Notes: generated by a model from the sequence alone, not told the origin. A stretch of 64,000 nt of DNA from an uncultured Acidobacteriota bacterium (GCA_963695655.1 CAVOHG010000009.1:372012-436011), one strand, 5' to 3'; positions 37,187 to 62,340 are shown, counted from the first letter of the stretch. A program made the numbers and translations.

Positions 37187-37360
37187 ACAGGTTCTACAGG
37201 GTTCTACGAGGTTCTCACAGGGTTCTACAGGTTCGGCGGGTTCTACAGGTTCGGCGGGTTCTACAGGTTCGGCGAGGTTCTGCAGAACCGAACCAAGTAG
37301 AACCCGTAGAACCGAACCAGGTAGAACCCCGTGAGAACCCGGTAGAACCTCGTAGAACCC
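37187..37360. repeat. Long imperfect palindrome built from GGTTCTAC / GTAGAACC units
   Basis: The left arm has GGTTCTAC-type units at 37190, 37200, 37210 and 37221, then the 18-mer AGGTTCGGCGGGTTCTAC three times (37229-37282). The centre is the perfect 14-nt palindrome GGTTCTGCAGAACC (37276-37289). The right arm carries GTAGAACC/GAACC units to 37360. Confidence 0.9.
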
Positions 37361-37366
37361 TATAAT
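37361..37366 (+). promoter_or_regulatory. Candidate -10 box (TATAAT), 6 nt upstream of the lhgO GTG
   Basis: A perfect TATAAT sits in otherwise GC-rich DNA. Six bases (CTCCGA) separate it from GTG 37373 and there is no room for an SD sequence, so a leaderless transcript is possible. No convincing -35 element was found. Confidence 0.25.
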
Positions 37367-37372
37367 CTCCGA

Positions 37373-38472
37373 GTGGAAGAAATAGACGTTCTCGTTGTCG
37401 GCGCTGGTGTCGTCGGGCTCGCGTGCGCTGCGGAAATCGGTCTCTCGGGTCTGACGGTCTGTCTCGTCGAGCGCCATCCGCGCGCGGGGATGGAGACAAG
37501 CACCCACAACAGCGGTGTCCTTCACGCTGGTATCTACTATCCCCCCAACAGTTTGAAAGCGTTGCTCTGCGTCGAGGGGCAGCGTCTGCTCTATGAGTTC
37601 AGTGCCAGGTACGGGGTTCCTCACCAGCGCTGCGGAAAGCTGATCACTGCGTCGGCATCCTCACGAGATCGGCGCGCTCGAAGCCCTCATGGCGCGAGGG
37701 AATGCGAATGGTGCGGACTCACTTCAGATGATCGATCGAGCGGAGACGCTCAGGCGTGAGCCAAACGTTGCCGCGGTTGCTGCCATCTGGTCGCCCGGTA
37801 CCGGGATCATCGAGCCGGAGGCGCTGGTACGAACGCTGCGCGATCTCTGCACCGCACGCGATGTCGTATTCCTGCCGGGAACGACTGTGCTGAGAGCGGA
37901 ACCGGCCGCGGACGCACTGGACGTTTACACGGGCTCGGAAACGATTCGCGCCCGCACCGTGATCAATGCCGCTGGTCTCTACGCCGACGAGGTGTCGGAG
38001 GCATGCGGAGGCGAGACGTTCAGGATCTATCCGGTGCGGGGCGAGTACGCGGAGCTCGTGCCGGCAAGACGATCACTCGTCAACGGCTTGATCTACCCGT
38101 TGCCCCACGCCTCCGGGCCACGGCCTCGGAGTCCACGTCACCAAAACCACCTGGGGAGGCGTCCTGTTTGGACCGACGGCGGCATACCAGGAACGGAAGG
38201 ACGACTACGAGGGCAATCGCATTCCCGTCGAAGCCTTCGTCGAGCCCGCGCGGGAATTGCTGCCGGGCATCCAGCTCGAGGACCTTCGACCGGGCGGAAC
38301 CGGCATCCGGCCGAAGTTGCATCCGCCCGAAGACTCGTTTGCAGACTTCATGATCCGACGCGACTCGCGCATACCCGCGCTGATCCAGGCCGCTGGAATC
38401 GAATCGCCAGGGTTGACGGCTTGCCTCGCAATTGCGAGGCGTGTTGGGGCGCTGGTTCAGGAGAGCGCGTAG
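37373..38472 (+). pseudogene. lhgO: L-2-hydroxyglutarate oxidase / FAD-dependent oxidoreductase (LhgO family), 2 or more frame breaks
   Basis: It begins (GTG)[21 protein letters not shown] and has [22 protein letters not shown]. It continues in ORF 37689..38624 (..[23 protein letters not shown]) and ends in ORF 38257..38472 (..[25 protein letters not shown]). Confidence 0.75.
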
Positions 38473-38490
38473 AGGCGTTCGCGTCCGAAC

Positions 38491-39330
38491 TCATGGGCGG
38501 GCGACATGTCGCTCGAGCGCGTTCTGCCATGTCGGCATCGCGATCCCTGCGAGCCGCAGCTTCTCGTTCGAAAGCGCACAGTATTTGGGTCGCTTCGCCC
38601 GAAGCACCACGTCATCGAAGCTGACCCGATCGAGCACCGGCTCGCAGCCCAAGATGCGAGCCGCTTCCTCGGCCATGCCGGCCCATGTCGTCACGCCGGT
38701 GTTGACGCAGTGATACAGCCCGGAGCGGCGGGCGCTTTTCGACGCAGCGCGACCGTCGCCTCTGCCACGTCATCGACGTAGCTCGGAGTGACCGTGCGAT
38801 CGACGAAGACGCGTACGGGCTCACCGCGGCGGATGCCATCGAGAATTCGGTCGACGCTGCTCTTCGCCCGCTCGCCGCCGAACAGGCTCTCGACGCGCAG
38901 GACGTAGTGGTCCGGCGCCTCGGTGGCGAACCACTCACCCAGTAACTTCGAGAGACCGTAGTTACTCGACGGCGCCGGCGTGTCCGACTCTGTATAGGGT
39001 TGGTGGGCCCTGCCGTCGAACACGAAGTCCGTACCGTAATGAACCAGCGTCGCGCCGGTCTGACGCGCGGCTCTCGCCAGCGAGAGCACGCCAAAGGCAT
39101 TCGCGTCGAGCGCCTCCAGCGGCTGTTCTTCCGCCTGATCGACAGCGTTGTATGCGGAGCAATTGACGATAACGTCCGGCCCGAAGCTCGCCGCCACTCG
39201 CAGGACGTCATTCTCGACCGTGATGTCGAGGTCCTTTCGCGTCATCGCACTCACGTCGGCGAATCCGTGAGAATCGACGGACGATCGCGCGCCCGAGCTG
39301 GCCCGCCGCGCCGGCAACAAGAACGCGCAT
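38491..39330 (-). pseudogene. dTDP-4-dehydrorhamnose reductase-like SDR (RmlD family), 2 or more frame breaks
   Basis: ATG 39330 gives MRVLVAGAAGQLGRAIV. The frame shifts by about 39265 into ORF 38691..39320 (..DLDITVENDVLRVAASFGPDVIVNCSAYNAVD..YGLSKLLGE), and the C-terminus is in ORF 38491..38694. It overlaps the degT stop by 1 nt. Confidence 0.75.
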
Positions 39331-40466
39331 CACGCCGTGATTGCGGCGTGCATCGCGGTCACAACGGCCTCCTGCTGGCCGGCCGTGAGCTCACCGTAGA
39401 TCGGCAGCGCGAGCGTGCTGTCCGCCGCCGCTTCTGCCCGCGGGAAATCTCCCCGCACGTAGCCAAGACCGGCGAAGCACTCCTGCAGATGGAACGGCAC
39501 GGGGTAATACACCTCGGTGCCGATCACCGCGCTCAGCCATGAACGCGCGCACGCGGTCGCGGTCCGGCACCCTGACGACGTACTGGTTGAAGATGTGCGC
39601 ACAGCCGGACGGGATCACCGGCCGCGAGACCTGGCTCGCCAGCCCACTGGATGCGATGAGCGCATCGTAGCGGGCGGCATTTTCCCGGCGCATCGCCGTC
39701 CATTGCGGCAGGTGCGGAAGCTTGACCCGCAGGACTGCCGCCTGCAGCGCGTCCATCCGGAAGTTCGCGCCGATGCGCTTGTGGAAGTACTTGGGCTCGG
39801 CGCCGTGATTGCGCAGCAGCCGGAGCTCGTGAGCCAGCCCGGGATCGTTCGTCGTAATCAGCCCGGCATCGCCGAAGGCGCCGAGGTTCTTGCTGGGAAA
39901 GAATGAGAAGCACCCGGCGACTCCCATCGAACCCGCCTGCCTCCCGTGGTAGGTCGCGCCAATGGCCTGGCAGGCGTCTTCAATCACCGCAATGCCCGGC
40001 TTTCGCGGCCGCCTCGAGAACGGGATCCATGTCGGCGCACAACCCGTACAGGTGCACCGGCATGATGGCGCGGGTCCGCTCGGTCAGCGCGGCTCCAACC
40101 GACGCGGGATCGAGGTTGTATGTCGCTGGGTCGATGTCGACGAGCACAGGCGTCGCGCCGACGCGGACGATGCACCCGGCAGTGGCGAAAAACGAGTACG
40201 TGCTGGTGATGACTTCATCGCCCGGACCGATGCCGAGCGCCATCAGCACCGCGAGGATTGCGTCTGTCCCCGAGGAGACGGCCACCGCCTCGGCAGACTC
40301 CGAGCTCGATCGCGAGCTCCCCCTCGAGCGCCTCGATCTCCGGCCCCATGATGAACCGCTGGCTGTCGCACACGCGGGTGATCGCGGCGAGCAGCTCGTC
40401 GCGCAACGGCCGATACTGCGCCTCGAGATCGAGGAGCGGCACGGCGGCGCGCGTGGCCGATGTCAT
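39330..40466 (-). pseudogene. DegT/DnrJ/EryC1/StrS-family sugar aminotransferase, about 4 frame breaks
   Basis: ATG 40466 gives [48 protein letters not shown]. It continues in ORFs 39980..40285 ([23 protein letters not shown]), 39391..39987 ([26 protein letters not shown]) and 39330..39602 ([14 protein letters not shown]). Confidence 0.8.
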
Positions 40467-41018
40467 CGAACGACGATCTCTGGCGAACCCCACAGCGCGA
40501 GATCGTTGTCCTGGTTGTTGCCCTTGTTCGGCTCGCTCGCGTTCGTGTTCAGGATCAGCGCGACCTGCTCCCCGGCATAGGCTGACAGGTCGATCTTGAG
40601 CGGCGTCCACTTGCGATCCGACGGGTTGTTGTACGGATCGACGTGTTGCGTGAACAGCTGCTCGTACGCGCGACCGTCTGACACTCCGCCGTGGAACTTG
40701 ACGCCGTCGCCCAGGCTTCTCCCACGCCTCCGGCTTGAGCGCCACCCACACCCACAGCCACCCGTCGTCCGGAACCGTGACGTTCCAGGTCAGGCGGGTA
40801 CCGGCGGTGGGCGCAATCGCGATCGCCTTCCGCGTTTCGCCGTTCAGGTTCGCGTCGGTGACGGTGAACAGGTCGGGTGACGGTTGCTTCTTCGCCGATT
40901 CGAACTGGGCCACGAGATCGATGGAATGCGCGGCTTCCCCGCGCCTGAAGAGCCACCAGCCGACGACGATGAGCACGAGAACGACGACGATCGTGAGAGT
41001 CGTTCGATTTGCTTTCAT
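40463..41018 (-). pseudogene. Hypothetical N-terminally anchored protein, one frame break
   Basis: The N-terminus is MKANRTTLTIVVVLVLIVVGWWLF (TM helix), then ..TRLTWNVTVPDDGWLWVWVALKPEAWEKPG. The frame changes near 40700 into ORF 40463..40684 (..VSDGRAYEQLFTQHVDPYNN..ALWGSPEIVVR). I recognise no family. Confidence 0.5.
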
Positions 41019-41080
41019 GAAATTCAGCTGCCTCCGCTAAGACAAACGACTCAATTTATCATGCCACCCGGCACCGATGC

Positions 41081-41563
41081 CTATCGGACGCGCTCCTTCA
41101 CGGCTGCGCGTGTCTCGCGTTCGGCATCCCGCTTCTTGACCGTCTCGCGCTTGTCGTGCGCCTGCTTGCCCTTCGCCAGCCCAATCGCGACCTTCACGTG
41201 CCCGTTCTTGAAATACATCCGCGTCGGCACGAGCGTCATGCCCTTCTCCACCGTCCGGCCGATCAGTTTCCGGATCTCCTGGCGGCGCAGCAGCAGCTTG
41301 CGCCGGCGCGTCGGCTCGTGGTCGGCGTAGCCCCGGTGGCTGTAGGGATTGATGTGCACGTTCAGGATCCACACCTCGCCGTCTTCGACACTCGCGTAGC
41401 TGTCGCGGAGGTTCACGTTCCCTTCGCGAATGGCCTTGACCTCGGTGCCAAGCAGCGCGACGCCGGCCTCGAAGGTTTCGAGGATGTGGTAGTCGTGGAA
41501 GGCCTTGCGGTTCTCCGCAATGCTCTTCTGCGCCTGCTCGCGTTCGCTTTTCACCGTCGTCAC
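41081..41563 (-). CDS. smpB: SsrA-binding protein SmpB
   Basis: ORF 41081..41563(-), 160 aa, GTG start. It has IAENRKAFHDYHILETFEAGVALLGTEVKAIREG, WILNVHINPY and RRRKLLLRRQEIRKL. Confidence 0.93.
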   Translation of the reverse strand: MTTVKSEREQAQKSIAENRKAFHDYHILETFEAGVALLGTEVKAIREGNVNLRDSYASVEDGEVWILNVHINPYSHRGYADHEPTRRRKLLLRRQEIRKLIGRTVEKGMTLVPTRMYFKNGHVKVAIGLAKGKQAHDKRETVKKRDAERETRAAVKERVR

Positions 41564-43252: not shown

Positions 43253-44144
43253 TCACCCGCGTTCCCGAGGCCAGCCGTGCCGCCAGCCGGATTGCCTCGA
43301 TCATGCTCGACGGATCCGCGACGCCCTGCCGGGCAATATCGAACGCGGTTCCGTGGTCGACCGAGGTCCGGATGATCGGCAGCCCGAGCGTGACATTCAC
43401 GGCTTTGCCGAACGCGACGAGCTTGACCGGGATCAATCCCTGATCGTGATAACACGCGACGACCGCATCGAACTCGCCGCGCATCGCCCGGACGAAGACC
43501 GTGTCTGCGGGAAACGGACCGCCGATCTCGACTCCTCGCGGCTCGGCACGCCCGAACCGCGGGCGCCAGCACTTCGTCGTCTTCCCGGCCCATCAGGCCG
43601 TGCTCGCCTGCGTGCGGATTCAGCCCGGCGAGCGCCAGTCGCGGGGCGGCAAAACCGAATCGAGGCAATTCGCTCGCGGCAAGAGTGATGATCGATTCCA
43701 CCGCGGCTTGCGTCAGCGCGCCGGGCACCTCGGAGAGGGGAATGTGCACCGTCGCCAGGACGACGCGAAGCGACTCCGCGTAAAACATCATCGCGACCTG
43801 GCGAGCGCCAGTGAGATGGGCGAGCAGATCCGTGTGGCCTCTCCACGGCAGGCCGGCGGCGGCGAACGCTTCCTTGTTGATCGGCGCAGTCGCGACCGCG
43901 TCGATCTTGCGACTTCGCGCGTCGTCGACGGCACTGCACGACGGCGTCGTACGCAGCACGGCCAGCCTCGGCCGAGATCCGCCCACACGCGAAGGCGCGC
44001 AATCTCGTCTGGCTCATGAGGTCCATACAGAACAATGTCGCAGGCTTCTGCCAGGCTGGGATCCGCCGCAGCCTTCATCGCGATCTCTGGACCGATACCC
44101 GCAGGATCGCCCACGGTGACGCCGATTCGTGGCCGACCGCTCAT
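43245..44144 (-). pseudogene. pdxA: 4-hydroxythreonine-4-phosphate dehydrogenase PdxA, several frame breaks
   Basis: It reads MSGRPRIGVTVGDPAGIGPEI (ATG 44144, ATGA overlap with the ricT stop), DAVATAPINKEAFAAAGLPWRGHTDLLA, LAGLNPHAGEHG, and [33 protein letters not shown] (ORF 43245..43484). Confidence 0.85.
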
Positions 44145-44976: not shown

Positions 44977-45009
44977 GGCGACGGCCTCTATAGCGGGGGA
45001 CCCGGGACG

Positions 45010-45034: not shown

Positions 45035-45039
45035 AGACG

Positions 45040-48746: not shown

Positions 48747-49379
48747 ATGAGCACCCTTTTGCGCGTTTCCTCTCTGCTTTTTGTCCTCGGATTTCAGGCC
48801 GCCCCGACCGAACCTGGCTGGACGAGCCTTTTCAACGGAAAGGATTTGACCGGCTGGAAAGTCGTCACGCCGGCGTCATGGACCGTCAAGGACGGCGCGA
48901 TCGTGGCGAATGGCATGGCCGGCCATGTTTATTACGACGGCGAGTTCAAGAACCACATGTTCCGCAACTTCGAGCTCAAGGTGGACGTGATGGCGAAGGC
49001 GAATTCAAACGGCGGCGTCTATGTCCTGACCGAATACCAGGACACCGGATTCCCCAAGAAGGGATTCGAGATCCAGGTGAACAACACCTATAACCGCGAC
49101 CCTGTGAAGACGGGCAGCCTGTATCACGTGCAGGACGTCACCGAAGCGCTGCCGAAAGACGACGAGTGGTTCACCGAACACATCATCGTCAAGGGCAACA
49201 ACATCACCGTCAAGGTGAACGACAAGCAGGTGGTGGACTGGACGCAGCCCGCGGACTGGAACGGCGGCAAGGAGGGTCCAGGGCGCGCGATCAGTGGCCC
49301 GGGAACCATTGCGTTGCAGGCTCACGACCCGAACAGCACGGTGTACTACAAGAACATCCGGATCAAACCGCTCGACTGA
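48747..49379 (+). CDS. DUF1080 (3-keto-disaccharide hydrolase-like) domain protein, secreted
   Basis: ORF 48699..49379(+) trimmed to ATG 48747 (MSTLLRVSSLLFVLGFQA signal). It has WTSLFNGKDLTGWK, WTVKDGAIV, FRNFELKVDV, NSNGGVYV, FEIQVNN, KTGSLY and IALQAHDPNSTVYYKNIRIKPL. Confidence 0.85.
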   Translation: MSTLLRVSSLLFVLGFQAAPTEPGWTSLFNGKDLTGWKVVTPASWTVKDGAIVANGMAGHVYYDGEFKNHMFRNFELKVDVMAKANSNGGVYVLTEYQDTGFPKKGFEIQVNNTYNRDPVKTGSLYHVQDVTEALPKDDEWFTEHIIVKGNNITVKVNDKQVVDWTQPADWNGGKEGPGRAISGPGTIALQAHDPNSTVYYKNIRIKPLD

Positions 49380-50921
49380 CGGCCGACGGGAGAGGCGGAG
49401 CCGGCGTGCTCCGTCCCTCCCCCTTCTCGACGTACTGCCGCTCCGTCGCGCGGATCGCCTTGTACCTGGCGAATACCGCACGCGCATCCTCGAGACCAAT
49501 CGCCGACCGCCACGTACTGCCGCGGAAGGTATGGGCCATCATCCGTGCACCGTTCTTCAGCACGAACCCCGGATAGTGCCTCACGACCGAAGGAAGGTGG
49601 CGCACCTTCATCCAACGCTCGGCCCGCCATCTCGAGAACTCGATATCGTCGGCGGAGAGATGACGGCTCTTGACGACTGCTGTCGTCCCGTCGTACTCCT
49701 CGACCCGCTCACTCACGATCAGCCCGCGTTCGCGAAAGTCCTTCGTCATCGGAGTGCCGGGGTAGGGGGTCGGATGCTGGATGTACGGCCAGTCGACGAA
49801 ACGGCTCGCAAACCGCAGGTTCGTGTCGATCGACTCCTGCGTGTCATCGGGATTGCCGACGATGATGCCGCCGACGACGTACATGCCGGCACGGTGGATC
49901 CGATCGATGGCTGAGAGGGTCGCGTTGCCTGTCCTCCTGCCTCCCTCACGCTGGGCGTTCTTGGCGCTCGCCTTGAGGAACTCGAGGTCATCGTCGAGCA
50001 CATTCTCGATCCCCAGGAACACGTAGCGGAACCCGGCCGCGTGCATCAGCGGCGCGAGCGTCTCGCCATGATTGGCGATCGACGAGGTCATCGCCTGGAC
50101 GATGTAGTGGATGTCGTTGAAGCCGGCGGCGATGATCGCCCTGCACATCGCCTCGAACCGGGCGACGTTCAGCGTGATGTTGTCGTCGACGATGAAAATC
50201 GCGCGCGCGCCTCTCGCCCGTGCGTCGGCAATGTCGGCCAGGACTCGTTCGAACCCGAACGTGTGGAAGTTTCGACCGCGCATCTCGATGATCGAACAGA
50301 AGCTGCAGTCGAAGGTGCAGCCGCGCGAGGTTTCCACGATGTCAATCGGGCGGCCGAGAAAGGTGTACCCGTCGAGCACGCGCGAGCCGCGGTCAGGGAG
50401 CGCAATCGAGCCATCGTCCAGTCCGCTGACCGGTCGCGGCGGGTGGTGAACGAACCGGTTGCCGTCGTGGATCGACAGTCCCGCGAATCGCGTCAACCGG
50501 CTGGCCGCCGTTCCAGGCAGCGGAGCAGATCACGAAAGGTGAGGTCCCCTTCGCCGCGGACGATGAAGTCCACGCCCGACCCCGGTTCCTCGTAGGCTTC
50601 GGGCGCGAGGCTGGGGTCGTACCCGCCGGCCACGACCGTCACGCCCGGCTTGATCGCGCGAATCAGGCGGACGAGTTCGAGTGCGGTCTTGCGCTGGAAC
50701 GTCATCACCGAGAGGCCGACGACGTCAGGATCGCCGTCACGCATCAGGCGCTCGACCACGGATCGCACCTGCGCCTGGACGAGGACGAGATCGGCAACCG
50801 AGACGCGATGGTGCCGGTCGACATTGCCGGCGAGCGACGCCAGTGCTCCGTTCGGCATCCGCATCGTGAGTGCAGGCGTGTGCTCGAATGAGTCCGGCAT
50901 CGAGAGGAGCAGTACTCGCAT
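49363..50921 (-). pseudogene. B12-binding-domain radical SAM protein, one frame break near 50495
   Basis: ORF 50493..50921(-) reads MRVLLLSMPD..DVVGLSVMTFQ..VVAGGYDPS..IVRGEGDLTF (B12-binding domain). ORF 49363..50496(-) has IVETSRGCTFDCSFCSI (CxxxCxxC), IFIVDDNITLN and FLGIENV. Its 3' end overlaps the DUF1080 gene by 17 nt (convergent). Confidence 0.82.
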
Positions 50922-50948
50922 CGCAACCTCGTGTGGAAGCTTCGCCTC

Positions 50949-51155
50949 CAGCTGTCAGCTATCAGTTTTCAGCTATCAGCTATCAGCTTCAGTCAGCTCT
51001 GGCCATCGGCTTTTAACTTCAGCATCCGGATCATGGGATCCAGGAACTCGTTTCAGCCCTCAAGACTGCAACGTGCAGCTGATATCAGGTCTTTTCACCA
51101 ATAACTGATAGCTGATAGCTGACAGCTGATAACTGACAGGCGACAGCTGACAGCT
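50949..51155. repeat. Inverted arrays of the heptamer CAGCTAT flanking a core of about 100 bp
   Basis: Left arm (50949-50998): CAGCTGT CAGCTAT CAGTTTT CAGCTAT CAGCTAT CAGCTTC .. CAGCT. Right arm (51103-51155): AACTGAT AGCTGAT AGCTGAC AGCTGAT AACTGAC AGGCGAC AGCTGAC AGCT, which is the reverse complement. It fills the spacer between the LLM stop and the rSAM start. Confidence 0.9.
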
Positions 51156-51156
51156 C

Positions 51157-52224
51157 CTATGCCGCCGTCATCCGGTCCCGCACTTCCGCGACGATTTCGA
51201 AGGTTCTCAGCCGTGCGATGTGATCGAACACCTGCGCGGTCAGGATCAACTCGTCGGCTGAGGTCGCCGCGATGAGGGTGGTCAGTCGAGCCGCAACGGT
51301 GTCCGGAGATCCGATTGCCGCGTAAGCCATCGCATGTTCCACACCAGCCTGCTCGAACGGCGTCCATCGCCCCTCCATGCTGTCGACCGGCGGCTGCAGC
51401 GGTCCAGGCGTCCCCCTCCGGAGATTCACCCACTGCTGCTGGAGCGAGGTGGCGAGGCGCTCAGCTTCGGCGTCCGTGTCTGCCGCGACGACGCTGACAC
51501 CGACCATCGCATACGGCCGCTGGAGCTGCTCCGACGGTCTGAACTGGCGTCTGTAGATGTCGAGCGCCTGCATCAGGTAATCGGGAGCGAAGTGTGACGC
51601 GAACGCGAATGGCATCCCGAGCGCCGCGGCCAGTTGGGCGCTGAAGAGGCTGGAACCAAGCAGCCAGATCGGCACTCGTAGTCCTGCGCCCGGAATCGCA
51701 CGGACAACCTGGCCCGGCTGCACCGGTGCAAGATACGCGCGCAGTTCCTGCACATCGCGAGCGAAGTTCTCTTCGGTGGCTGAAAAATCGCGGCGGAGTG
51801 CGCGCGCGGTCGTCTGGTCGGTGCCCGGGGCGCGGCCGATGCCCAGATCGATGCGCTCAGGATAGAGCGATTCGAGAGTGCCGAACTGTTCGGCGATGAC
51901 GAGTGGCGCATGATTCGGCAGCATGACGCCACCGGAACCTACGCGAATCGTGCTCGTTCCACCGGCGACGTGCCCGATGACGACGGCCGTCGCGGCGCTG
52001 GCGATCCCCGGCATGTTGTGGTGTTCGGCGAGCCAGTAGCGGTGGTAATCCCAACGCTCTGCGTGCCGGGCCAGGTCGAGCGTGTTGCCGAGCGCCTGCG
52101 CGGCAGACCCGCCTTCGATGATGGGCGAAAGATCGAGCACCGAAAACGGGATCGTTGGGCATTGCTCTGGTGCGCCCCCGACATGGGGACACTCAACTGT
52201 ACGGTAAGCCGCCGGTCCGTTCAA
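51157..52224 (-). CDS. LLM-class flavin-dependent oxidoreductase (luciferase-like monooxygenase family)
   Basis: ORF 51157..52224(-), 355 aa. It has [91 protein letters not shown]. The start is uncertain (TTG 52224 or GTG 52140). Confidence 0.85.
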
Positions 52225-52253
52225 AAAACAAATGCGGGCTCATCCGATACGTG

Positions 52254-52352
52254 CGGGACTGCGGGATCGGGCTCGGGATCGGGGATCAGGGATTCAGGGA
52301 TTAAGGATCGGGAGATCGATTGGGAACTGGTCGACTGGCGACTGGTTGCAAC
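52254..52352 (+). repeat. G-tract / GATC-rich tandem array ending in the palindrome GGTTGCAACC
   Basis: Nine G3-4 tracts fall in about 70 nt (52255, 52263, 52269, 52275, 52281, 52289, 52297, 52310, 52322), mostly as GGGATC units. There are five GATC sites (52265, 52277, 52284, 52306, 52314). ACTGGTCG/ACTGGCG/ACTGGTTG repeats follow, then GGTTGCAACC at 52343-52352. Confidence 0.85.
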
Positions 52353-52361
52353 CGATATCAC

Positions 52362-53033
52362 CTAACTGAGGCACTCCAGGACTGCCGCATCGAACGCTCC
52401 CGCGACCTCCATCAGCGAACGGTTGCCGTCAATGGCGCGGAATGTCGGGCCTTTCCGATACCACTCGACGAGCGGCGCGGTGTTCTCGACGTATTCCGCG
52501 ACCCGGCGCTTGATCACCTCCACGTGATCGTCAGCGCGCTTGACGAAGGAGCCGCCGCAGGACGCGCAATATTCGGTCGTCGGTGCCCCGGTGTCGGCCT
52601 GGCCGCAGCTTTCGCAGATTCGCCTGGAGAGAATGCGGTTGATGATGACGTCAGGGCTGACGTCGAGGTAGATGACAATCAGCGCGCCCCGCCCGCTCAT
52701 GACGCGATCGAGCGCGAGCGCCTGGGGCAGCGTGCGCGGAAAACCGTCGAGCACGAAACCAGCGGCGGTATCCGGAAGCTGTAGCCGGTCTTCGACCACC
52801 CTGATGATCAGGTCGTCAGGGACGAGGCCGCCCGCGGCCAGTGTCGCCTCGACTTCACGGCCGAGCGCGGTTCCGCGGGCGACAGCGTCGCGAAGCATGT
52901 CACCGGTCGAAATCTTGGGGATGCGGTGGCGACGCGCAAACTGCGCGCCCTGAGTCCCTTTACCGGAACCTGGCAGCCCGACGACGACGATATTACGGGG
53001 CCCGGATCCGGCCTTTCGCCGTTCCTCGTTCAC
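52362..53033 (-). CDS. adk: Adenylate kinase (Zn-lid type)
   Basis: 3' part of ORF 52362..54563(-). It has NIVVVGLPGSGKGTQGAQFARRHRIPKISTGDMLR, GFVLDGFPRT, the lid CESCG..CASCGG, and RADD. The start is assigned to GTG 53033 (VNEERRKAGSGPRNIVVVG) and is uncertain. Confidence 0.85.
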   Translation of the reverse strand: MNEERRKAGSGPRNIVVVGLPGSGKGTQGAQFARRHRIPKISTGDMLRDAVARGTALGREVEATLAAGGLVPDDLIIRVVEDRLQLPDTAAGFVLDGFPRTLPQALALDRVMSGRGALIVIYLDVSPDVIINRILSRRICESCGQADTGAPTTEYCASCGGSFVKRADDHVEVIKRRVAEYVENTAPLVEWYRKGPTFRAIDGNRSLMEVAGAFDAAVLECLS

Positions 53034-54275
53034 CGGCCGCGTCTCAGACACCGGACGATCTCCTTGGCGCAGGCGATGGAAAGCGAGCGCCCGCCGGACG
53101 GCGGGCGGGGTTGAAGCCGCATCGAACCGAGAGCGTACCACAGGACCTGTTGAGGCAGGAGCGGCTAGACTTCCGACCGGCTGAGCGTCCAATCGCGTCC
53201 GGAGCCACCAACCCGGGCGACTTCTGGCTCGATCGCAGCGCCACGCCGACGTCTGCCATCGCCGCAAGGGCCACCACAGTGTTCCGAGCACCGCAACCCA
53301 GGCGGCGACAGACGGCAGGTGCAGAACCCATCCTGTCCTGAAACCCACGAGCCACGCCGCGGTGACCATCGCGCAGGCTCCCGCCGTGGTCCAGCGGCGT
53401 GCTCCTTCGTTGTGGCTCGACAAGAAAGCCGCGTGGATCGCGACCGCCAGAGGAACGCTGACGACCACGTCCATCAGCCAGTGGGATCCCTCGGGACTGA
53501 GGACCGCCCACATGGTGAGCAGGACGAAGGCACGCAGTGCGCGTCTCGCCGGGACGGCGACTCCGCGCGCGCTGAACCAGATCAGCAGCGCCCAGATGGT
53601 GTGGAGAGAAGGCATACCGTTGCGTGGCGCGCCGCCAACAGCCATCAGCAACGTGGAATGGAGAGGCACCGTCGGCAACGTGTCCGGATAGTAAGGACCG
53701 AAAGAGACGACGGGGCCGACAACCGGGCACACGAAATAGAGCGCGAATCCGCAGGCCCCGGAGATGAGGACCGCGTTGAGCACCTCCTGTTCGCGGCCGC
53801 GCTCCCGCTGCCCCGCCGCGACGACCGCAATCGCAATCGCCACCAGGTTGTAGCAGGCGGTTGCCACCGCACTGAGCGGGGTCAGAATCCCGTAGGCCTG
53901 GGCGCTCCACAGCGAGAACTTCACGCCGAGAAGCTCCTCGAAGGCATAGATTCGAGGGTCGTACACCGGATTGACCCGGAAGGTCGCCCACAACCCGTAC
54001 GACACCATTGACGCACCCAGCGGCAAGAGGAGCGCGTCCATCAGACTGCCGACGTAGTCCGCCCTCGTGTCGCGATCCGTGGACAAGGACGCCGCGACCA
54101 CGAATCCCACGACCCCCAGAACACCGAGCGCGAAGAGCATGTCGAGCCAGAGCAGCACCGGGGGCGCTGCCTGGCCCTCGATTGCCAGCGCCGCGAGCCA
54201 GGTCAGAGGTGTGAGATAGACAATCCAGCGCCGGGTGCGTCCACGGAGGTCGCGTATGAAGTAGCGGCAGAACAC
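53034..54275 (-). CDS. PAP2-superfamily (Aur1/IPC-synthase-like) integral membrane protein; both ends uncertain
   Basis: 5' part of ORF 52362..54563(-). It has multiple TM helices, ..APRNGMPSLHTIWALLIWF.. and ..SHWLMDVVVSVPLAV.. (PAP2 C2/C3-like motifs). No in-frame stop occurs before adk. The first plausible start after the upstream gene's stop is GTG 54275. Confidence 0.5.
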
Positions 54276-54456
54276 GGTTGCTGCCGCGATGGCGGCAAAC
54301 GGATTTCGAACGAGCGCGACTGCCGGGCCCGGCGCCCCACTTCGCGCGGCGAGATATTCAACGATCGGTAGCCGCGGCGAGCAGCGTGAGGAACAGCCAG
54401 CGTCGCTCGACGAAGTCGCGAAGGCGGAAAGGCGCGACCAGGCTGGAGGACAGCAA

Positions 54457-55903
54457 CTATTCCGACTCCAGGCGACGCACCGTGCGGTCCGCCACCACCG
54501 AAGCCGTGGGTCTGGCGAAGACCGACCATCCGCCTTCGCCGGACGTGGCCTGCCACCCGTCACGCTCGAGCGCGTTCGCGAGCGGTGAATCGCGCGTGGT
54601 CAACGCGCACCCGATGTCATAGCGGGCGAACATCGGTTGGAACTCCCCCGATCGTTCGAGCTCGATGTGGCGCCGCACCATGTCCTGCGGATACGGATCC
54701 TGGCGGCTGTCGATGAAGACCTTCTTGTCCCTGGCAAACCAGATCAGGTAGCCGCCATCGTCGTACCGGTTGTAGAGTCGGCCAGGACAATTCGTAACCG
54801 CTCGACGGAGATCGTCGGCGACCGGCGTCCAGCCAAGACGCGGCAGCGGCTCGGTCCAGGCTGCCCCCACGGCAAATACGCCAAGGACGACGGCCACTGC
54901 GAGCACGATCGCATTGAACGCGGGCCGCTCCGGCGCGGACTGTGGCGAAGGCACGTGTTCGCGCTTCAGCAACGTGCCGAGCAATGGTACGGCGCAGAGC
55001 GTGAACGGAGGAATGTTCCGCCGCGTACCGAGCGCGAGCACAAGGAACATCAGCGTCGCAGCACTCAGGAACGCGACGGTCGTCGAGGTGCGCAGCTGAG
55101 ACCGGTGGATGACCAAGGTCACCACGACCGCGAGTGAAGCGATCCAGAACGGCAGGTCCACCAACTGCCAGGCCAGGTCGCTGCCACTCCATGACGCCGT
55201 AGTCGTGCAGCCGCGCGAGCGACATCGGGACCTCTGCCCAGAGAGTGAATCCAAGCGGCGTCGCCGCAGTGCAGAGCAGGCCGGCGGCGGCAACGATGGC
55301 CATCCTTCGAAACTCACTCGGGCGGACGATCAGCGTCGAGACCAGCGCCGCCGCGAGCAGGACTACTCCAAGCGAGACGCCACCATGAAGATTTGCCCAG
55401 ACGACGAACACGGGCGCGAGCGTCCAGAGACGCCGTCGGTCGACGATGATCCACAGAGTGATCGCGACCAGCGCGAGGGTGAATACCTGCGGCCGGAGCG
55501 ACCAGGCCGGACTCGTCATCACAGCTCCGGCGCCGAGCAGCACGAGTCGAACGCCTCTCGGTGCCGGCGTCAGGCTGGCGACTACGGCCCAGCAGACGGT
55601 GACGACCGCGGCGCACAGAGCCGTCAGCAGCGGCAGACCGCCGGCCTTGTACGCGGCATAGAACAGGACCTGCGCCAGCCACTCGTGGTTCGGCCAGTAA
55701 CCGCCGCTGACCGTGTGGGAGAACTCGTCGCGCAGCATGACGTGATGCGATTGCCACATCACCTCGCCCGCACGCAGCTGCCACCATGTGTCGGTCTGGG
55801 CCGGCATCAGGCAGGCGGTGAGCGTCAGGACAAGAAGCAGGAGCGCGGTCGAAAACCGCTCGAACGTCAGCGGGTTCGCGCGGCTGGCCAGGAACGCGGA
55901 CAT
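54457..55903 (-). pseudogene. Polytopic membrane protein of unknown function, one frame break near 55170
   Basis: ORF 54617..55903(-) reads MSAFLASRANPLTFERFSTALLLLVLTLTA..TDTWWQLRAGEVMW..FSHTVSGGYWPNHEWLAQVLFY.. It continues in ORF 54457..55317 (..LPFWIASLAVVVTLV..NRYDDGGYLIWFARDKKVFIDSRQDPYP..). Confidence 0.5.
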
Positions 55904-56068: not shown

Positions 56069-58515
56069 CTATTCGAGTCGCAGCGCCTCGACCGGGTTGA
56101 CGGAGGCTGCGCGCCGGGCCGGGACATAGCTGGCGACCAGCGTGGAAGCGGCGAGCGCTCCGGCGACGGTCGCAATCGTCGACACATCGTACGTGCGGAC
56201 GCTGAACAACAGCGTTCGCAGGGTGGTGGCGGCCGCGATCGAGGTCACGATACCGATGCCCAGGCCGAAGGCCACAAGGCTGGACGTCTCGCCGAGAATG
56301 AGCTTGTACACCGCACCGCGCTCGGCCCCGAGCGCCATGCGGACGCCGATTTCGCGCGTCCGCTGACTCACCGAGTACGCAACGACGCCGTACAGGCCGA
56401 CGACCCCGAGCACCCACGCCACCGCCGCGAATGCCGCGACGAGCGCCGCCGCCGATCGACGGAGGTACGCCGCCTCGGAGTCGTTGATGATCGACGACAT
56501 CGTCGTGCCGCGAGATGTCGACAGTCGCGGATCGAGCTGATTGATGGCGGCCGCCATGGCTGGAAGCAGTGACCGCTCCGCCTGCGAGGTGCGTGCGAAG
56601 ACGGCAAAGCCGCTTGTCGGGTCCTGCGCAAACGCCACGTACATCGTCGGCCGCGTCGCCGCATCGAGCGGCCCTTCCTTGATGTCGTCGACGATGCCGA
56701 CGATCTGCATCGCGGGCTGAGTCGTGGTCGGCGCGTACCAGCAACTGTTTGCCGAGCGGGTCTTCACCGGGGAAGTACTGCCTGACCAGCGCCTGGTTGA
56801 TGATCGTGACGGGCGGCTTCGACGGGAGATCGTCGTCGGTGAAGTCGCGTCCTCGTAAGAGGCGCGCCCGCAGGGTTGAAAAGTAGCCCTGGCTCACCTC
56901 GCGGTACTGCACCTCGTTGTGCTCACCGTGATAGGGGCGGCCCTCGACCCTGATCCACATCGTGTTGCCGCCGAAGACCGGCGGCGTGCTGGAGGTGCCG
57001 ACCGACTGCACACCCGGCAGCATCGCGATGCGGTTCGCGATCTGCCGCTCGAGCGCGGCTTGCTGCTCGTTGGTCGAGTAACCGTCCTGCGGCGCATTGA
57101 CGGTGAGCGTCGCGAGGTGATCCACCTGCATCCCGGTGTCCACGCGCAGCAGGCGGTAGAAGCTCTTGCCCAGCGAGTCCGGCGCCGACGAGCAGCACCA
57201 TCGCGGTCGCAAGTTCGAGGACGACGAGCTTCGGGCCGATGCGCCGCCACGTGTTGCCGGCGGAGCCACGGCTGCCCGACGCCAGACGCTCCCCCACGTC
57301 CGCGGTCGACATCTGCAGCATCGGAGTGATTGCGAAGAGTGCGGCGGCCGCAACCGCCAGCGCACTCGCAAATGCGGCGACCCGCGGGCGTCATCCCGAG
57401 GTCGCGGAGAAACGGCATTCCGGCCATGATGTCCGCTGGAACCAGGCTGCTCAGCAGCTGAACCGCCCAGTACGCCGACACCAGCGCGAGCACCGTCCCG
57501 AGCGCGACAAGCACAATCGCCTCGGTCACGAACTGGCGAATGACGCGCACCGTGGACGCGCCAAGCGCCGTGCGGATCGCCACTTCACGCCTTCGACTTT
57601 CGGAGCGGACGAGCAGCAGGCTGGCGACGTTCACGGCAGCAATCACCAGAAGGAGTCCGGCGCCGCTCAGCAGCACGATCAACATCGGCCGAATCATCGC
57701 CGACGATCACGTCCTGGAGCGGCAGGACGGCTGCACCCTGTCCCCGATTCGAATCGGGATACGCCTTCTCGAGCTGCTGCGCAACGGCGGTCATTTCGGC
57801 CGCCGCCGACTCGATCGACGACACCGTCCTTGAGCCGGGCGACGCCGAAAAGATTGTGGCAGCTCCGCCGGAGGTCGCATGGGTTCGACGCGTGGAGAGT
57901 GACCCAGAAGTCTGCTGGTTCAGCCGGTGCGAAGTGGAAATGGCGCGGCAGCACGCCGACGATGACGTGCGGGGCGCCGTTGAGTGTCACCGATTCTCCG
58001 AGCACGTTGGCGCGCCGCCATAGCGCGCCTGCCACGCGGCGTAGCTCAAGAGCACGGTGCGCGGCGGCGGAGGGCAGGTCTTCCCCCGCACGAAAATCGC
58101 GCCCGACGAACGGGGGTGACTCCGAGCGTCCGAAAGAAATCGTCGCTGACCCGTGCGGAAGGAACCCGCTGGGCCCCTGCAGCGGCGGTAAGTGTCATCC
58201 CCGACCGCTGGTACGCTGACAGCGAATCGAAGGAGCGGTTGAGAGTTTTCCAGTCGCGATAGTCGGCGTACGACAGGTTCGACTGCGGGAACATCGGGAC
58301 CGACTCGTAGACCCCCACCAGTCTGCGAGGGATTGGCGTAAGGCAGGGGTCTGAGGAGCGCCGCGTCGACGAACGCGAAAGATGGCAACGCTGGCACACA
58401 GGCCGAGCGCGAGCGTCAGCACCGCGGTGCAGGTGAAACCGGGATTCTTGCGCAGCTGCCGCAGCGTGAAGCGTCCGTCCTGCAGCAGGTCGCCGGCCAG
58501 TGTCAGTGCGCGCAC
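56069..58515 (-). pseudogene. ADOP-family ABC permease (duplicated MacB/FtsX-type permease), many frame breaks
   Basis: GTG 58515 gives [42 protein letters not shown], the ADOP N-terminal signature. Fragments are ORFs 58195..58515, 58046..58399, 57694..58035, 56894..57697, 55995..57371 and 56069..56767, the last ending ..YVPARRAASVNPVEALRLE*. Confidence 0.8.
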
Positions 58516-58661
58516 GAAGGCCTCGGTCCTGCGCGGACTCGCCGGTCGACGCCTTTCGGACTATTCCAATCAGTCGCCGGCCAGATATCCCCGCGCGACA
58601 GTTCGACGGCCGCGGCCGGCGAATGGTTCCGTCCCGCGGAGAGGAGAAGAACTTTGCGCCC

Positions 58662-61332
58662 TCACCAGCCTCGCGATTCGCTGCTCGTCCCGCCCGCCGC
58701 CGGGATGTAGGCGTTGGTCACGTAGTCCATCACCATCCGGTCGGCGCTGAAGCGCCAGCCCAGGCTGTGAATGGCACGTTTCATTCGCGCAATCCATTCG
58801 CGCGGCAGGCCGTCGCGGTCGCGGGCGTAGTACATCGGGATCACCTGCTCGCGCAAGCACGCTGACGAGTGCCTGCGCGTCGCGCGCGTCGTGAACGGCC
58901 GGCGACGAGTGAGTCCGGCCGCCGCCGATCGCGAAGCCGTTCAGGCCGTCGTAGGCCTCGGCCCACCATCCGTCGAGGACCGAAAGGTTCAGCCCGCCGT
59001 TGAGGACCACTTTCTGCCCGCTCGTTCCGCACGCTTCGAGCGGCCGGCGCGGGTTGTTCAACCACACGTCGACGCCCTGGACCAGGTGCCGTCCGACATC
59101 GATGTCGTAGTTCTCGATGAACAGGACCCTGCCGGCGAACCGCGGGTCGCGCATGAGCTGCGCGATTTCCTTGAGGATCTCCTTGCCCGGGAAGTCCTGC
59201 GGGTGGGCCTTGCCGGCGAACACGAACTGCACCGGCATCCTCGCATCCGCCAGAAGCGAGACGATCGCCTCCATGTCCTGGAGGATGAGATTGGCGCGCT
59301 TGTAGGTGGCAAACCGGCGGGCAAAGCCAATCGTGAGCGCGTCGAATGCAAGGGCAGTGCGCGCCTGGGCGACGGCCTCGACCGATTCGCCGCGTGCCTC
59401 CGCCTGATCGGCGGCGCGGCGGCGCGCAACCTCGATCAGCTGACGCTTCAGTGCCTGGTGGGTTTCCCAGAGCTCGCCGTCGTTCACTGCGTCGATCGCT
59501 TCCCAGAACCCCGGGGCATGACAGCGCGCCGGCCAGTCGGGACCAAGGTGCCGGTTATAGACCTGTCGCATCTGCGGCGCGAGCCACGACTGGACGTGCA
59601 CGCCGTTGGTGATGTGCCCGACCGGCACCTGGTCTTCCGCCGCCCCTGGATAGAGCGACGTCCACATCGTCCTGGACACTTCACCGTGGAGCGAGGACAC
59701 CGCGTTCGCACGTCGACAGAGCTTCAGGGCCAGGACGGTCATGCAGAACGTCTCGGCTCCGTCGCCCGGGTTGATGCGCCCGAGGTCCATCAGTCCCTCG
59801 GGGCTGAGCGTCATCGCGTCGCGCAGCGGACCGAGGTGCTCCTCTACCAGTTGTGCGGTGAACCGGTCGTGTCCGGCAGGAACGGGTGTGTGAGTGGTGA
59901 AGACGACCTGCGACGACGTTCGCCGGATTGCCTCGTGGATGCCGACGCCCTCGTCCTCCATCCGGCGCCGCACGAGCTCCAGCACCGCAAAGGCGCTGTG
60001 CCCCTCGTTCAGGTGCACCACACCGGGCGCAATCCCCATCGCGGCGAGCGCGCGAACGCCGCCGACGCCGAGCAGGAGTTCCTGGCGGATGCGCACGCGG
60101 GTATCGCCGCCGTAGAGCCGAGCTGTCAGCTGGCGATCTTCGGGCTGATTGCCGTCGACATTCGAGTCGAGCAGCAGCAGCGTATTGCGCCCGACGGCAA
60201 GGGTCCAGACGCGAGCGAAGATCGTGCCTGTTCGCGTCTCGATCTCGATCACGATCGGCACGCCATTGTTGACCGCAAGCTCGATCGGGAGACGACGGCT
60301 GTCGACGGTCAGGTAGTCCTCGTGCTGCCAGCCGTCGCGATCGAGACGCTGGGTGAAGTAGCCCTGGTCGTAGTAGAGGCCGACCCCGACGAGCGGAATC
60401 CCGAGGTCGGATGCGCTCTTGATGTGATCGCCGGCGAGGATCCCCAGGCCTCCGGAGTAGATCGGCAGCGATTCGTGCAACCCGAACTCCGCCGAGAAGT
60501 ACGCGACCGGGCGCGCGCGCAGCACGCCGGCGTGGCGGCCGCCCCACGTGTGCCGCGCCTGGAGATACTCCTGCAGTCGGCGATACGCGTAGTTGATGCG
60601 GCTGTGCAGCACGAGCTCGGACGTGCGCGCCTCGATCGTGTCCGGCGGAATCTCCTGCAGCAGCGCGACCGGGTTATGACCGGTCCGATGCCAGAGGACC
60701 GGATCGAGCTCGCGGAAGAGGCTGGTCGTTTCGTGGTCCCAGCACCACCACAGGTTATGCGCGAGGGCGGAGAGGCGCTGATGCGCCGGTGCAGTGAAAT
60801 GGCCGACCGTGCGCGCCTCGTCGACAATGGGCGCGAGCTGCGCACCGGCAGAGGCCAGCCGCTCGATCGCTTCCTGTCCGAATTCTCTCGCCTCGATCGT
60901 CTGAACGACGAGCACGCCGAGCAGCACGCCGGAATGGAACAGGGGCACGCCAAGGAAGGACCGGTACGAATCTTCGCCGGCTTCGCTGAAGTACTTGAAC
61001 CGGGGGTGCAGCATCGCGTCGGCGACAGCCGCGGGCTGCTGGCGCTGGGCGACGAGGCCGGCGAGACCCTCGCTGAGGCGCATGCGTACCCGGCCGACGC
61101 TCTCGGGGCGGAGACCGACGGTGGCGGCGAGCACCAGGTTCGCGCGGTCCGGTTCGAGCAGGTAGACCGAGCAGACGTCGGTGTCGAAGCGCCGCTGGAT
61201 TTCGTGAACGATGTTGGTGAGCGTCTCCGACGGATTTCTCTTCGCCGATATCAACCGGCTGATCTGATCGAGGTTCCAGGACACCGACGATTTGAGACCC
61301 CCGATGGGGGCTTCTCGAACGCTCACGCACAC
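58662..61332 (-). pseudogene. glgP: Alpha-glucan phosphorylase (GT35, GlgP family) with N-terminal PtsP-type GAF domain; one frame break near 58865
   Basis: ORF 58570..61332(-). GAF domain: DVCSVYLLEPDRANLVLAATVGLRPE..SEGLAGLVA..HPRFKYFSEAGEDSYRSFLGVPL..LGVLVVQT. Phosphorylase core: YFSAEFGLHESLPIYSGGLGILAGDHIKSASDLG, HLNEGHSAF, TTHTPVPAGHD, FARRFATYKR and EACGTSGQKVVLNGGLN. The true C-terminus is in ORF 58662..58856 (EQVIPMYYARDRDGLP..). Confidence 0.85.
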
Positions 61333-61618
61333 CTCCGGAAACGCTGGCCGCCGACGGGGATCCGCCAGGTTTGTTGCACTTGCAAGAAGCTGCCCCGCGG
61401 AAATCCTGTGGATTTCGACGATCGCGCACCTCGCTCAGGCACCATTTGCGACGTAAATGTCGGCTGCACTGAAGACCACGAACAAAATGCGCTGTCGTCA
61501 ATGCGCGCTGCGACACGAGTGCTCCGCGACACTGCGGCCGCGCGCCAGACTGTTCGCATCAGCGAGCGTTGATTTCCTGGACATTCGAAAGACGAACCTC
61601 ACCCGGCCGTGGCGAGCA

Positions 61619-61906
61619 ATGCCCGTCCGCACTCCCGCGCAAATCATCAACGCGTGGCGCGAAGCTTGCTCTGATGTTCGGCAACTCACGGAGGTTCTCA
61701 TGCATGGTTACGGCGAATGTTCCGTCCCGGCAGAGCAGCTCACGGCGCAGTTCATGGAGCTGCCCGGCCTGCGGTTGACACTGCACCAGGCGGCGCGACT
61801 TCTCCACATCGACCGGGTCATGTCGGAAGACGTCGATCGACATGCTGCTCGACGCCGCATTCCTCCGGCGAATGCCGGACGGCAGCGTGGTGCGAGCGGA
61901 CCAATG
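61619..61906 (+). pseudogene. Small hypothetical protein (about 95 aa), one frame break near 61835
   Basis: ATG 61619 lies inside ORF 61457..61939: MPVRTPAQIINAWREACSDVRQLTEVLMHGYGECSVPAEQLTAQFMELPGLRLTLHQAARLLHIDRVMSEDV. The next frame gives IDMLLDAAFLRRMPDGSVVRADQ* (stop 61904-61906). I recognise no family. Confidence 0.3.
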
Positions 61907-62009
61907 AAATGTCGGTTCCAGGCGCCTGAAGTGACATAATTGTAGTCGGACGATCGCATTGTGCGATCGTGTCGCGGACGAATCGTCCGTATCGAAAGGA
62001 GTTCGAGTA

Positions 62010-62216
62010 GTGCCATCGCGCGCAGTACAACCCCGCAAGGCAACCCCACCCCGCAAACGAAAGGCCGCCGTCTCGCCAGACGCGCGCCAGATCACCGCGA
62101 CCGATATCTCGCGTCGTGCCTATGAGCTCTACGAGGCTCGCGGCACCAGCGGCGGCGATCCACTCGAGGATTGGCTTCGAGCAGAGCGTGAGCTCTCGGA
62201 ATCAGCAGGGGCGTAA
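62010..62216 (+). CDS. DUF2934 domain-containing small protein
   Basis: ORF 61959..62216(+) trimmed to GTG 62010, which is preceded by AAGGAG (61996-62001). The Lys/Arg/Pro-rich N-terminus is followed by ISRRAYELYEARGTSGGDPLEDWLRAEREL, the DUF2934 core. Confidence 0.75.
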   Translation: MPSRAVQPRKATPPRKRKAAVSPDARQITATDISRRAYELYEARGTSGGDPLEDWLRAERELSESAGA

Positions 62217-62340
62217 ATCCACGAGACGACGCGCTCGAGGTTTTACGTTTTAGGTTTACGCGTTCTACGCCAGGTTTTACGTTCCAGGTTTCAGGTCTTG
62301 GTCGCGCGATCGGGGCTCGGGCGCTGGAACGTAAACCGCC
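62209..62340. repeat. GGTTTTACG-type tandem array with an inverted partner, between convergent genes
   Basis: Units are GGTTTTACG (62239), GGTTTACG (62253), CGTTCTACG (62261), GGTTTTACG (62273) and GGTTTCAGG (62287). GGTTTTACGTTCCAG (62273-62287) is complementary to CTGGAACGTAAACC (62324-62337). GCGTAAATCC, which spans the DUF2934 stop codon, is a further inverted copy. Confidence 0.8.

Follow-up and report, generated by a model that had tools for sequence, protein, structure and literature searches.

Short-word tandem arrays in intergenic spacers of an uncultured Acidobacteriota bacterium and their variation among relatives

Introduction

Why should several intergenic spacers of a single bacterial genome be filled with short words, each repeated head to tail and in part followed by its own reverse complement? 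This question is raised by a 64,000-nt stretch of DNA from an uncultured Acidobacteriota bacterium (GCA_963695655.1, CAVOHG010000009.1:372012-436011), here called the window, in which a sequence-only reading had marked four such spacers, termed S1 to S4 below. The window has a GC content of ~64%, and its genes are closest to proteins of Acidobacteriota metagenome-assembled genomes (MAGs); its luciferase-like monooxygenase (LLM) is 92% identical to a MAG protein of an 'Acidobacteriota bacterium'. The earlier reading held that each spacer carries a private word and that the pattern was undescribed. The analysis presented here indicated that three of the four spacers hold tandem arrays beyond chance, that these differ between relatives with nearly identical flanks, and that they are very probably arrays of the long simple-sequence repeat (LSSR) type, remodelled by slippage from shared families of words.

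Results

Tandem arrays were called with Tandem Repeats Finder (TRF) at a score of at least 40, at least 3.5 copies and a period of 5-12. Five arrays were detected in the spacers and none in 300 dinucleotide shuffles of them, and the whole window likewise gave five, against none in 30 shuffles of the window, so that the comparison with shuffled sequence proposed by the sequence-only reading came out in favour of the arrays. The arrays of S1-S3 had periods of 7, 9 and 10 with 3.9-8.1 copies each, and their word counts far exceeded those in shuffled sequence; the longest inverted repeats of the whole window were those of S1 and S2. S1-S3 also passed a test for LSSRs, defined as head-to-tail repeats of 1-11-nt units longer than chance, which S4 failed. 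The sequences that the earlier reading had reported were present at their positions (Table 1), and positions 1-37000 yielded no array by TRF, in agreement with its statement that the 20.9-kb operon and the surface-protein block contain none. That four spacers are filled by arrays held for S1, S2 and S3, and did not for S4, where the word GGTTTTACG occurs only twice and TRF found nothing. All four spacers do follow a stop codon; S1-S3 fill their spacers up to the next start, and a position after a stop is therefore not discriminating.

Assembly or sequencing artefacts, or chance low complexity, represent a practically negligible alternative. In several places of the window genes are interrupted by apparent frameshifts, as errors in a long-read consensus typically produce, which would speak for such an origin. 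Independent assemblies made from other samples and on other platforms, however, have arrays in these spacers too, which argues that the arrays are real, and the shuffled sequences stand against chance. An origin by artefact or chance is excluded for S1-S3.

Table 1. Positions of the four spacers, their parts and adjoining gene signals in the window
Feature	Position	Strand	Description
S1 spacer	37182-37372	+	array at 37190-37359
S1 left arm	37190-37282	+	~9 units GGTTCTACNN / GGTTCGGCG, period 9-10; 18-nt double unit x3
S1 right arm	37283-37359	+	reverse complement of the left-arm units (NNGTAGAACC)
S1 tip palindrome GGTTCTGCAGAACC	37276-37289	+	kept in all four alleles
TAA stop of upstream frameshifted surface-protein-like gene	37179-37181	+	8 nt ahead of S1
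TATAAT and GTG start of FAD oxidoreductase (Pfam DAO)	37361-37375	+	TATAAT at 37361-37366, GTG at 37373; directly after S1
S2 spacer	50922-51156	-	between LLM stop and ATG of the B12-binding/radical-SAM (B12-rSAM) gene; array at 50949-51155
S2 start-proximal arm	50949-50992	-	mRNA strand purine-rich, (ARCTGAN)x6; ends 27 nt before B12-rSAM ATG (50921)
S2 centre	50993-51100	-	~108 nt; conserved in L005; a different ~40-nt centre in L001
S2 promoter-distal arm	51101-51155	-	mRNA strand (CAGCTRT / CAGTTAT)x7; begins 2 nt past LLM stop
LLM gene	51157-52162	-	stop at 51157-51159
S3	52262-52346	-	+ strand (GGGATYN)x7.6, then (TCGAYTGG/ACTGG)x3; direct array only
Adenylate kinase (ADK) stop	52362-52364	-	S3 starts 15 nt past it
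S4 spacer	62217-62388		convergent; DUF2934-like stop at 62214-62216, histidine-kinase stop at 62389-62391
S4 core hairpin	62276-62335		conserved; perfect 12-nt arms 62276-62287 / 62324-62335
S4 insertion, 34 nt	62250-62283		re-duplicates arm sequence (GGTTTACG.. / GTTCTACG.. / GGTTTTACGTT); absent from L001 orthologue

The S1 array, for which TRF reported periods of 9, 10 and 18, contains the exact word GGTTCTAC five times on the plus and five times on the minus strand, whereas the expectation for GGTTYTAC over the whole window is 0.9. Its array arms are 75-95 nt long and include 39-nt arms that are 87% complementary, and the spacer was predicted to fold into a single imperfect hairpin (-110.7 kcal/mol, z -11.7). 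The same locus was found in three long contigs from ENA (L210, L211 and L233), which align with the window over 13 kb at 90-94% identity. The four alleles all differ in unit number and in linker bases, the window carrying one 18-nt double unit more, while the flanks, GGTTCTGCAGAACC, the TATAAT and the start codon show no or hardly any difference. The perfect TATAAT lies six bases ahead of the DAO GTG and is conserved in the three contigs; this pair may mark a leaderless transcript start.

Metagenome contigs with 87-99% LLM identity keep the gene order around this gene, among them short-read-style contigs from JGI and ENA (L001, L003 and L005), and the S2 spacer could thus be followed through five relatives. 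In the window, S2 consists of 6.4 CAGCTAT-type heptamers and 7.3 copies of the reverse complement around ~108 nt (fold z -8.9). L005 (LLM 99%) has the S2 hairpin, of which only one arm is expanded, by (AAAACTG)4 (z -4.1), and L001 (94%) has a shortened version with another centre (z -4.1). L003 (92%) carries (GCCGGAA)x11 (z +0.3) and L086 (90%) carries (GAAGTCG/GAAGCTG)x~14 (z -1.2), both without an inverted partner, and L087 (87%) has no repeat (z -0.4). The spacer thus takes five states in five relatives, with unit number, word and hairpin presence all variable, and a purine-rich heptamer array at the start-proximal place was found in L005, L001, L003 and L086. Since unit numbers, variants and even words differ between near-identical flanks, the arrays are hypermutable, and they evolve far faster than the neighbouring genes, in unit-sized steps. 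The comparison of orthologous spacers therefore bears out the earlier proposal of local remodelling by gain and loss of units, in the four S1 alleles as well as among the S2 relatives.

S3 is a period-7 array with three ACTGG-type units beside the GGGATYN units, and it has neither an inverted partner nor structure (fold z +0.1). Its mRNA strand is rich in C (43%, G 17%). Since the LLM start by homology is ATG 52162, not TTG 52224, the spacer extends over 52163-52361. Most units read GGGATCN, with C at position 6, and two (GGGATTC and GGGATTA) fit (GGGANTN)n; the ADK-to-LLM spacer of L001 holds (CCCCAGT)x5 instead of GGGATC-type units. On the plus strand, opposite to the genes, S3 presents at least six G3 tracts at 7-nt spacing (4 nt apart; 52262-52302), a sequence pattern of a potential G-quadruplex, as discussed for Xanthomonas repeats. 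A promoter-like TTGAAC-17-TACAGT motif downstream of S3 and upstream of LLM is conserved in L001 and L005. Behind it comes a small hairpin motif, GAGTGTCCCCAT..CGGGG; the positions noted are ~52165-52240 of the window (minus strand), 9930-10000 of L001, 30-113 of L005, 1195-1225 of L086, 11070-11093 of L088 and 11080-11108 of L089; the hairpin motif also adjoins LLM in more distant relatives without the rSAM gene.

S4 proved to be a small hairpin (fold z -0.6) that also holds loosely related GGTTT-ACG pieces. In L001 (2461-2576) the two convergent genes enclose an orthologue that is a simple hairpin, GGTTTACGTTCCAG...CTGGAACGTAAAACC, and from which the window differs by the 34-nt insertion in one arm. 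This local duplication would fit the 'slippage-expanded terminator' of the earlier reading. Collectively, the claim that the array follows in reverse complement in three cases stood for S1 and S2, S3 lacking an inverted half and S4 having only its small hairpin; the hairpin-forming character of the arrays was likewise seen in S1 and S2.

The question whether the words are private was answered by a metagenome scan for two adjacent GGTTCTAC words, which returned at least 120 stretches; the 56 of those listed that lie on contigs of 58-67% GC were analysed, and all counts for this family given in the following are among the matches listed. S1 turned out to be one copy of a decamer family with the unit consensus G-G-T-T-C-T-(A/G)-C-N-(G/A), or GGTTCTRCNR, at 10-nt spacing. 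At least 48 arms have at least four cores, 181 of the 241 steps from unit to unit measure 10 nt, and the 53 clusters fall into at least 46 different flank contexts. Two-armed clusters like S1 account for 18 of the 53, the others having one arm or scattered cores. The notion of private words did not survive these results, nor the finding of the S3 word in L187 as an inverted pair (CGGGATC/CGGATCC). The taxonomy of the carriers rests on one contig, L201: among named sequences, its TrpE (anthranilate synthase I) comes closest to those of Acidobacteria and Vicinamibacterales MAGs. A tblastx comparison of the carrier contigs with the window clade gave no close orthologues.

Such recurrence could point to a dispersed element. 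Under this explanation, which we consider unlikely, the GGTTCTAC arrays (S1 and perhaps an ancestor of S4) would descend from an element like the repetitive extragenic palindromic (REP) sequences and bacterial interspersed mosaic elements (BIMEs) or the MITEs (miniature inverted-repeat transposable elements), spread by a trans-acting enzyme and later altered by slippage, and it is doubtful in the same degree that the architecture was inherited from a master copy and not generated locally. The same 8-nt core at 10-nt spacing in at least 46 unrelated contexts argues for it, as do two copies each on contigs L162 and L197, an inner GGTTCGTTC unit, present in 18 of 48 arms, GATC on the outer side of the first unit and at most 8 nt from it in 10 of the 48 (~1 expected), and four clusters within 15 nt of a contig end, as expected for high-copy repeats. 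The decamer unit also contains GTAG, which is the conserved head of REPs. Against it, target-site duplication was not seen in 13 two-arm elements, whose flank matches were no better than those of random positions, although inverted arms as in MITEs are present. No full-length consensus is conserved, many copies are single direct arrays, and the two arms of one element share the core with only 48% identity at linker positions. GGTTCTRCNR is not self-complementary, so that, unlike in REPs, pairing occurs only between two arrays. No transposase was seen beside any copy, and a scan of 2.9 million viral contigs for the decamer array gave 21 matches and no family member. At the one locus compared, S1, no empty site was found: the array is present in all four related contigs, and distant relatives have a different gene order there. 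Template switching, by which the arms would be exact inverted copies, was considered separately and is weakly supported, given the linker identity of 48%.

The same contigs carry many more non-coding arrays, mostly of heptamers and often as inverted pairs, such as ATTGCTG/CAATCAG in L119 and TCAATGT/CATTGAG and GAATCCCC/GATTCGG in L120; CCCCAGT occurs also in L104, and unit lengths of 7, 8, 9, 10 and 11 were all found. With the ascertained decamer family left out, 17 elements in ~180 kb (contigs L090-L169) correspond to ~9 per 100 kb, compared with 2.7 arrays per 100 kb in a control set of 1.39 Mb from unrelated genomes, which came from a genome search with the LLM protein (best identity among the matches listed 75%). 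The clear cases in the control set come from Luteimonas, at a locus where GGTGATT arrays form inverted pairs, and from one Xanthomonas locus. Heptamer arrays were distributed over co-directional, convergent and divergent spacers as 20:1:1; for the GGTTCTAC arrays, rough gene calls placed 6 of 16 scorable cases in divergent spacers.

In a third explanation, a sequence-specific protein would bind each array at multiple sites, fix its word and regulate transcription or translation of the neighbouring gene, with DNA decamers phased to one helical turn and RNA purine-rich heptamers upstream of the start codon. We regard this as rather improbable. The strict core (GGTTC, and C at position 8) beside a near-random position 9, the 10-nt phasing and the arrays in divergent, promoter-bearing spacers are consistent with it, and the purine-rich sense-strand array 25-40 nt before the rSAM start is kept in five relatives whereas the hairpin is not; a similar proposal was made for TAACTGA repeats (PMC4679880). 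However, the words of the S2 spacer change wholly among close relatives (TAGCTGA, GAAGTCG, GCCGGAA), which is hard to reconcile with one cognate protein, and since unit lengths from 7 to 11 all occur, phasing to the helix does not hold generally. The analysis brought up no candidate protein, and the neighbouring genes have no functional theme.

Other annotations of the spacers gave no match. Rfam at the gathering score returned no match in the whole window, and at E<=1 over the spacers only sub-threshold chance matches; no tRNA or tmRNA was found in the scan, and a promoter and terminator consensus scan had no match at the spacers. A CRISPR array was rejected, the units being contiguous and 7-10 nt long, compared with 23-50-nt repeats with unique spacers. 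S1 and S2 were also rejected as intrinsic (Rho-independent) terminators, their hairpins having no U-tract.

Several further features were noted. In Luteimonas suaedae (L085), a Xanthomonas relative, at least three GGTGATT inverted pairs lie within 21 kb (4477-5208, 12184-12303 and 18872-18899) and display the S2 architecture with another word. Among the heptamer words of the clade (S2 and S3 of the window, and L001, L005, L100, L104, L109, L119, L150, L155 and L187), CAG/CTG, often as CAGT/ACTG, occurs in ~12 of 22, against ~25% expected, by a post hoc count by eye. The published words CCCCAGT and TAACTGA likewise contain CAG/CTG; this is at most a hint, perhaps of a bias arising from primase or nicking sites. 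Arrays of 8-9-nt units with TGGCAC/GTGCCA, namely (TGGCACCC)x15, GGCACCCCT, GTGCCAAGA and GGGTGCCAA, were located in L089 (6299-6418) and L150 (1-43, 9429-9486 and 12006-12047), and their core resembles the sigma-54 -24 element. Small self-complementary units, GGAGCTnnAGCTCC x3 and CCGCCTAAAGGCGG-type (L003 5095-5175, L001 9865-9885 and L003 2718-2733), possibly represent a separate REP-like family.

Probable long-read consensus errors, not pseudogenes, lie behind the broken or fused genes of the window, and the ENA contigs L088, L210 and L211 are similar. The surface-protein-like gene 35977-37181 shifts frame near 36890; the DAO gene 37373-38624 is in two pieces (37373-37759 / 37689-38624); the B12-rSAM gene 49363-50921, which relatives carry as a single gene of 517 aa, is split; in the LLM gene an additional A follows right behind the ATG (52150-52162); and PAP2_3 and ADK (52362-54563) form a single 733-aa open reading frame, being two genes in relatives. 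In addition, when L210 and L211 are aligned with the window, the match is interrupted at the spacer 33965-34055, leaving ~90 nt unalignable within surroundings of 86-94% identity, and this may be another fast-evolving spacer.

Discussion

The arrays are an acidobacterial version of a class of repeats described in cyanobacteria, Xanthomonas and Beggiatoa, and what is new here is the decamer hairpin family in Vicinamibacterales-like Acidobacteria. Cyanobacterial short tandemly repeated repetitive (STRR) heptamers such as CCCCAGT were reportedly described by Mazel and colleagues in 1990. The window clade resembles them in its tandem spacer heptamers, in having several words per genome and in sharing CCCCAGT (L001 and L104), and differs in belonging to another phylum and having no link to heterocystous cyanobacteria.

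The LSSRs of Mrazek et al. (2007), as far as that survey is reported in PMC4679880 and PMC4692102, are long simple-sequence repeats of 1-11-nt units, with heptamers commonest and polymerase slippage proposed as their source. The window arrays agree with this account in their tandem 7-11-nt units beyond chance length, their non-coding location, the prevalence of heptamers, their sporadic and lineage-specific abundance and the proposed source, and copy-number instability among close relatives was found in the four S1 alleles and the five S2 states. In the same account of the survey by Mrazek, Guo and Shah, Acidobacteria are not reported among the rich genomes (PMC4679880), and neither a fixed-core decamer family nor a long hairpin arrangement like that of S1 appears. 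In Xanthomonas, Rehm et al. (2015) found (GGGANTN)n or GGGAATC repeats, 89-93% of them intergenic and near the end of a neighbouring ORF, mostly transcribed and mostly between co-directional genes; 70-75 convergent inverted pairs occur per genome, the others being single, and 83% are at the same locus in a sister species, differing in length with the single-or-paired type preserved, while the Nostoc word is GGGGAYT (PMC4692102). The arrays of the window clade are likewise intergenic, single or in convergent inverted pairs, and kept at the locus with variable length, and S3 (GGGATYN, a G3 tract every 7 nt) has nearly the same word. Xanthomonas, however, has one dominant word per genome, whereas the window has several words in 64 kb and the word of a spacer is replaceable among relatives; S1 further differs by its 10-nt unit and its long arms. 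The TAACTGA direct repeats of Beggiatoaceae, cyanobacteria and Bacteroidetes lie just upstream of start codons, where a translational regulator was suggested, and the Beggiatoa genome has one indirect repeat among 170 sets (MacGregor, 2015; PMC4679880). S2 is similar in its CTGA-core heptamers a few tens of nt upstream of a start codon, its position 27 nt before the ATG fitting too, and its sense-strand units (TAGCTGA, AAACTGA and CAGCTGA) are each one base off TAACTGA; it differs in that the exact word is not on the sense strand and occurs in the antisense arm only (51102 and 51130), in its inverted partner array, and in phylum and GC content. With REP/BIME, enterobacterial repetitive intergenic consensus (ERIC) and Correia elements the arrays share a dispersed, non-coding, hairpin-forming nature, a place between genes or at cistron ends and a plausible effect on transcript ends. 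Those elements, unlike the window arrays, have a conserved full-length consensus, each REP unit being self-complementary and Correia elements and other MITEs having target duplications, whereas the window decamers are tandem 8-nt cores with free linkers and variable copy number. The idea that the pattern had no precedent was thus contradicted by the LSSRs, the inverted heptamer pairs of Xanthomonas and the TAACTGA repeats, although no publication was found on such arrays in Acidobacteria or Vicinamibacteria, or on the GGTTCTAC word.

The explanation that we favour, and as a whole hold to be moderately probable, combines LSSRs, shared words, remodelling in place and punctuation of transcription. 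The spacers would be filled by LSSRs of 7-10-nt units, a class abundant in some bacterial lineages, of which the source lineage would be one, as suggested by the LLM match to an Acidobacteriota MAG and by the one carrier typed as Vicinamibacterales-like. Within an existing array, units would be gained, lost and mutated, probably through strand slippage or unequal exchange acting on 7-11-nt units, and the words belong to a limited common repertoire, such as the S1 decamer GGTTCTRCNR, the S3 GGGATC type and the CTGA-type heptamers of S2. Where arrays are paired and inverted, as in S1 and S2, the RNA or the unwound DNA can fold into an imperfect hairpin of 170-230 nt with 8-10-bp helices interrupted by 1-2-nt mismatches.

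The functional part of this explanation is the more tentative one: that the arrays punctuate transcription units, as described for REP/BIME and ERIC, is possible, though we would not count on it from sequence features. Where the upstream cistron ends, the hairpins would hinder 3' exonucleases as well as read-through, and S3, being unstructured and C-rich, would give Rho a place to enter before the conserved promoter-like motif. Punctuation is favoured because of the conserved TATAAT after S1, the C-rich S3 with its TTGAAC-17-TACAGT motif, the S4 hairpin between convergent genes and the mostly co-directional setting of the heptamer arrays. Many copies may nevertheless be merely tolerated by-products of the mutational process.

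Several observations weigh against this explanation. The window and three comparison contigs resemble long-read assemblies with indel errors, and some single-base differences between arrays may therefore be errors; the differences in unit number exceed what indel errors could produce. Conservation is lacking for the S2 hairpin: L003 and L086 have direct arrays only and L087 has no array, so that structure is not the maintained feature there. No T runs follow S1 or S2, and the terminator scan was without a match at S1-S3. The GGTTCTAC arrays between divergent genes do not fit a pure terminator. Moreover, slippage alone leaves the recurrence of one 8-nt core at dozens of loci unexplained, and likewise the shared inner GGTTCGTTC unit and the outer GATC.

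These last features could be accommodated if the GGTTCTRCNR arrays were an undescribed dispersed element of Vicinamibacterales-like Acidobacteria, seeded or maintained at gene boundaries by a dedicated sequence-specific protein, a possibility to which we assign a low probability. The phased decamers, the invariant 8-nt core, the inner GGTTCGTTC and the GATC-marked ends would then reflect a nuclease or transposase or a DNA-binding factor, which is equally speculative, and the whole would, with no greater likelihood, amount to a REP/BIME-like system built of tandem words and not of palindromic units. If true, it would explain how one word comes to lie in dozens of spacers with drifting linkers and copy number.

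Mainly, the finding adds a phylum to the range of a known class of repeats and sets right the view that every spacer makes up a word of its own. Being hypervariable among strains that are otherwise 90-94% identical, the arrays offer ready-made strain markers, and they probably make contigs break in assemblies of soil metagenomes. They are also candidates for signals that punctuate transcription units, in a phylum whose terminators are uncharacterised, and if the GGTTCTAC family is indeed protein-dependent, it would represent a new type among the few dispersed-repeat systems of bacteria.

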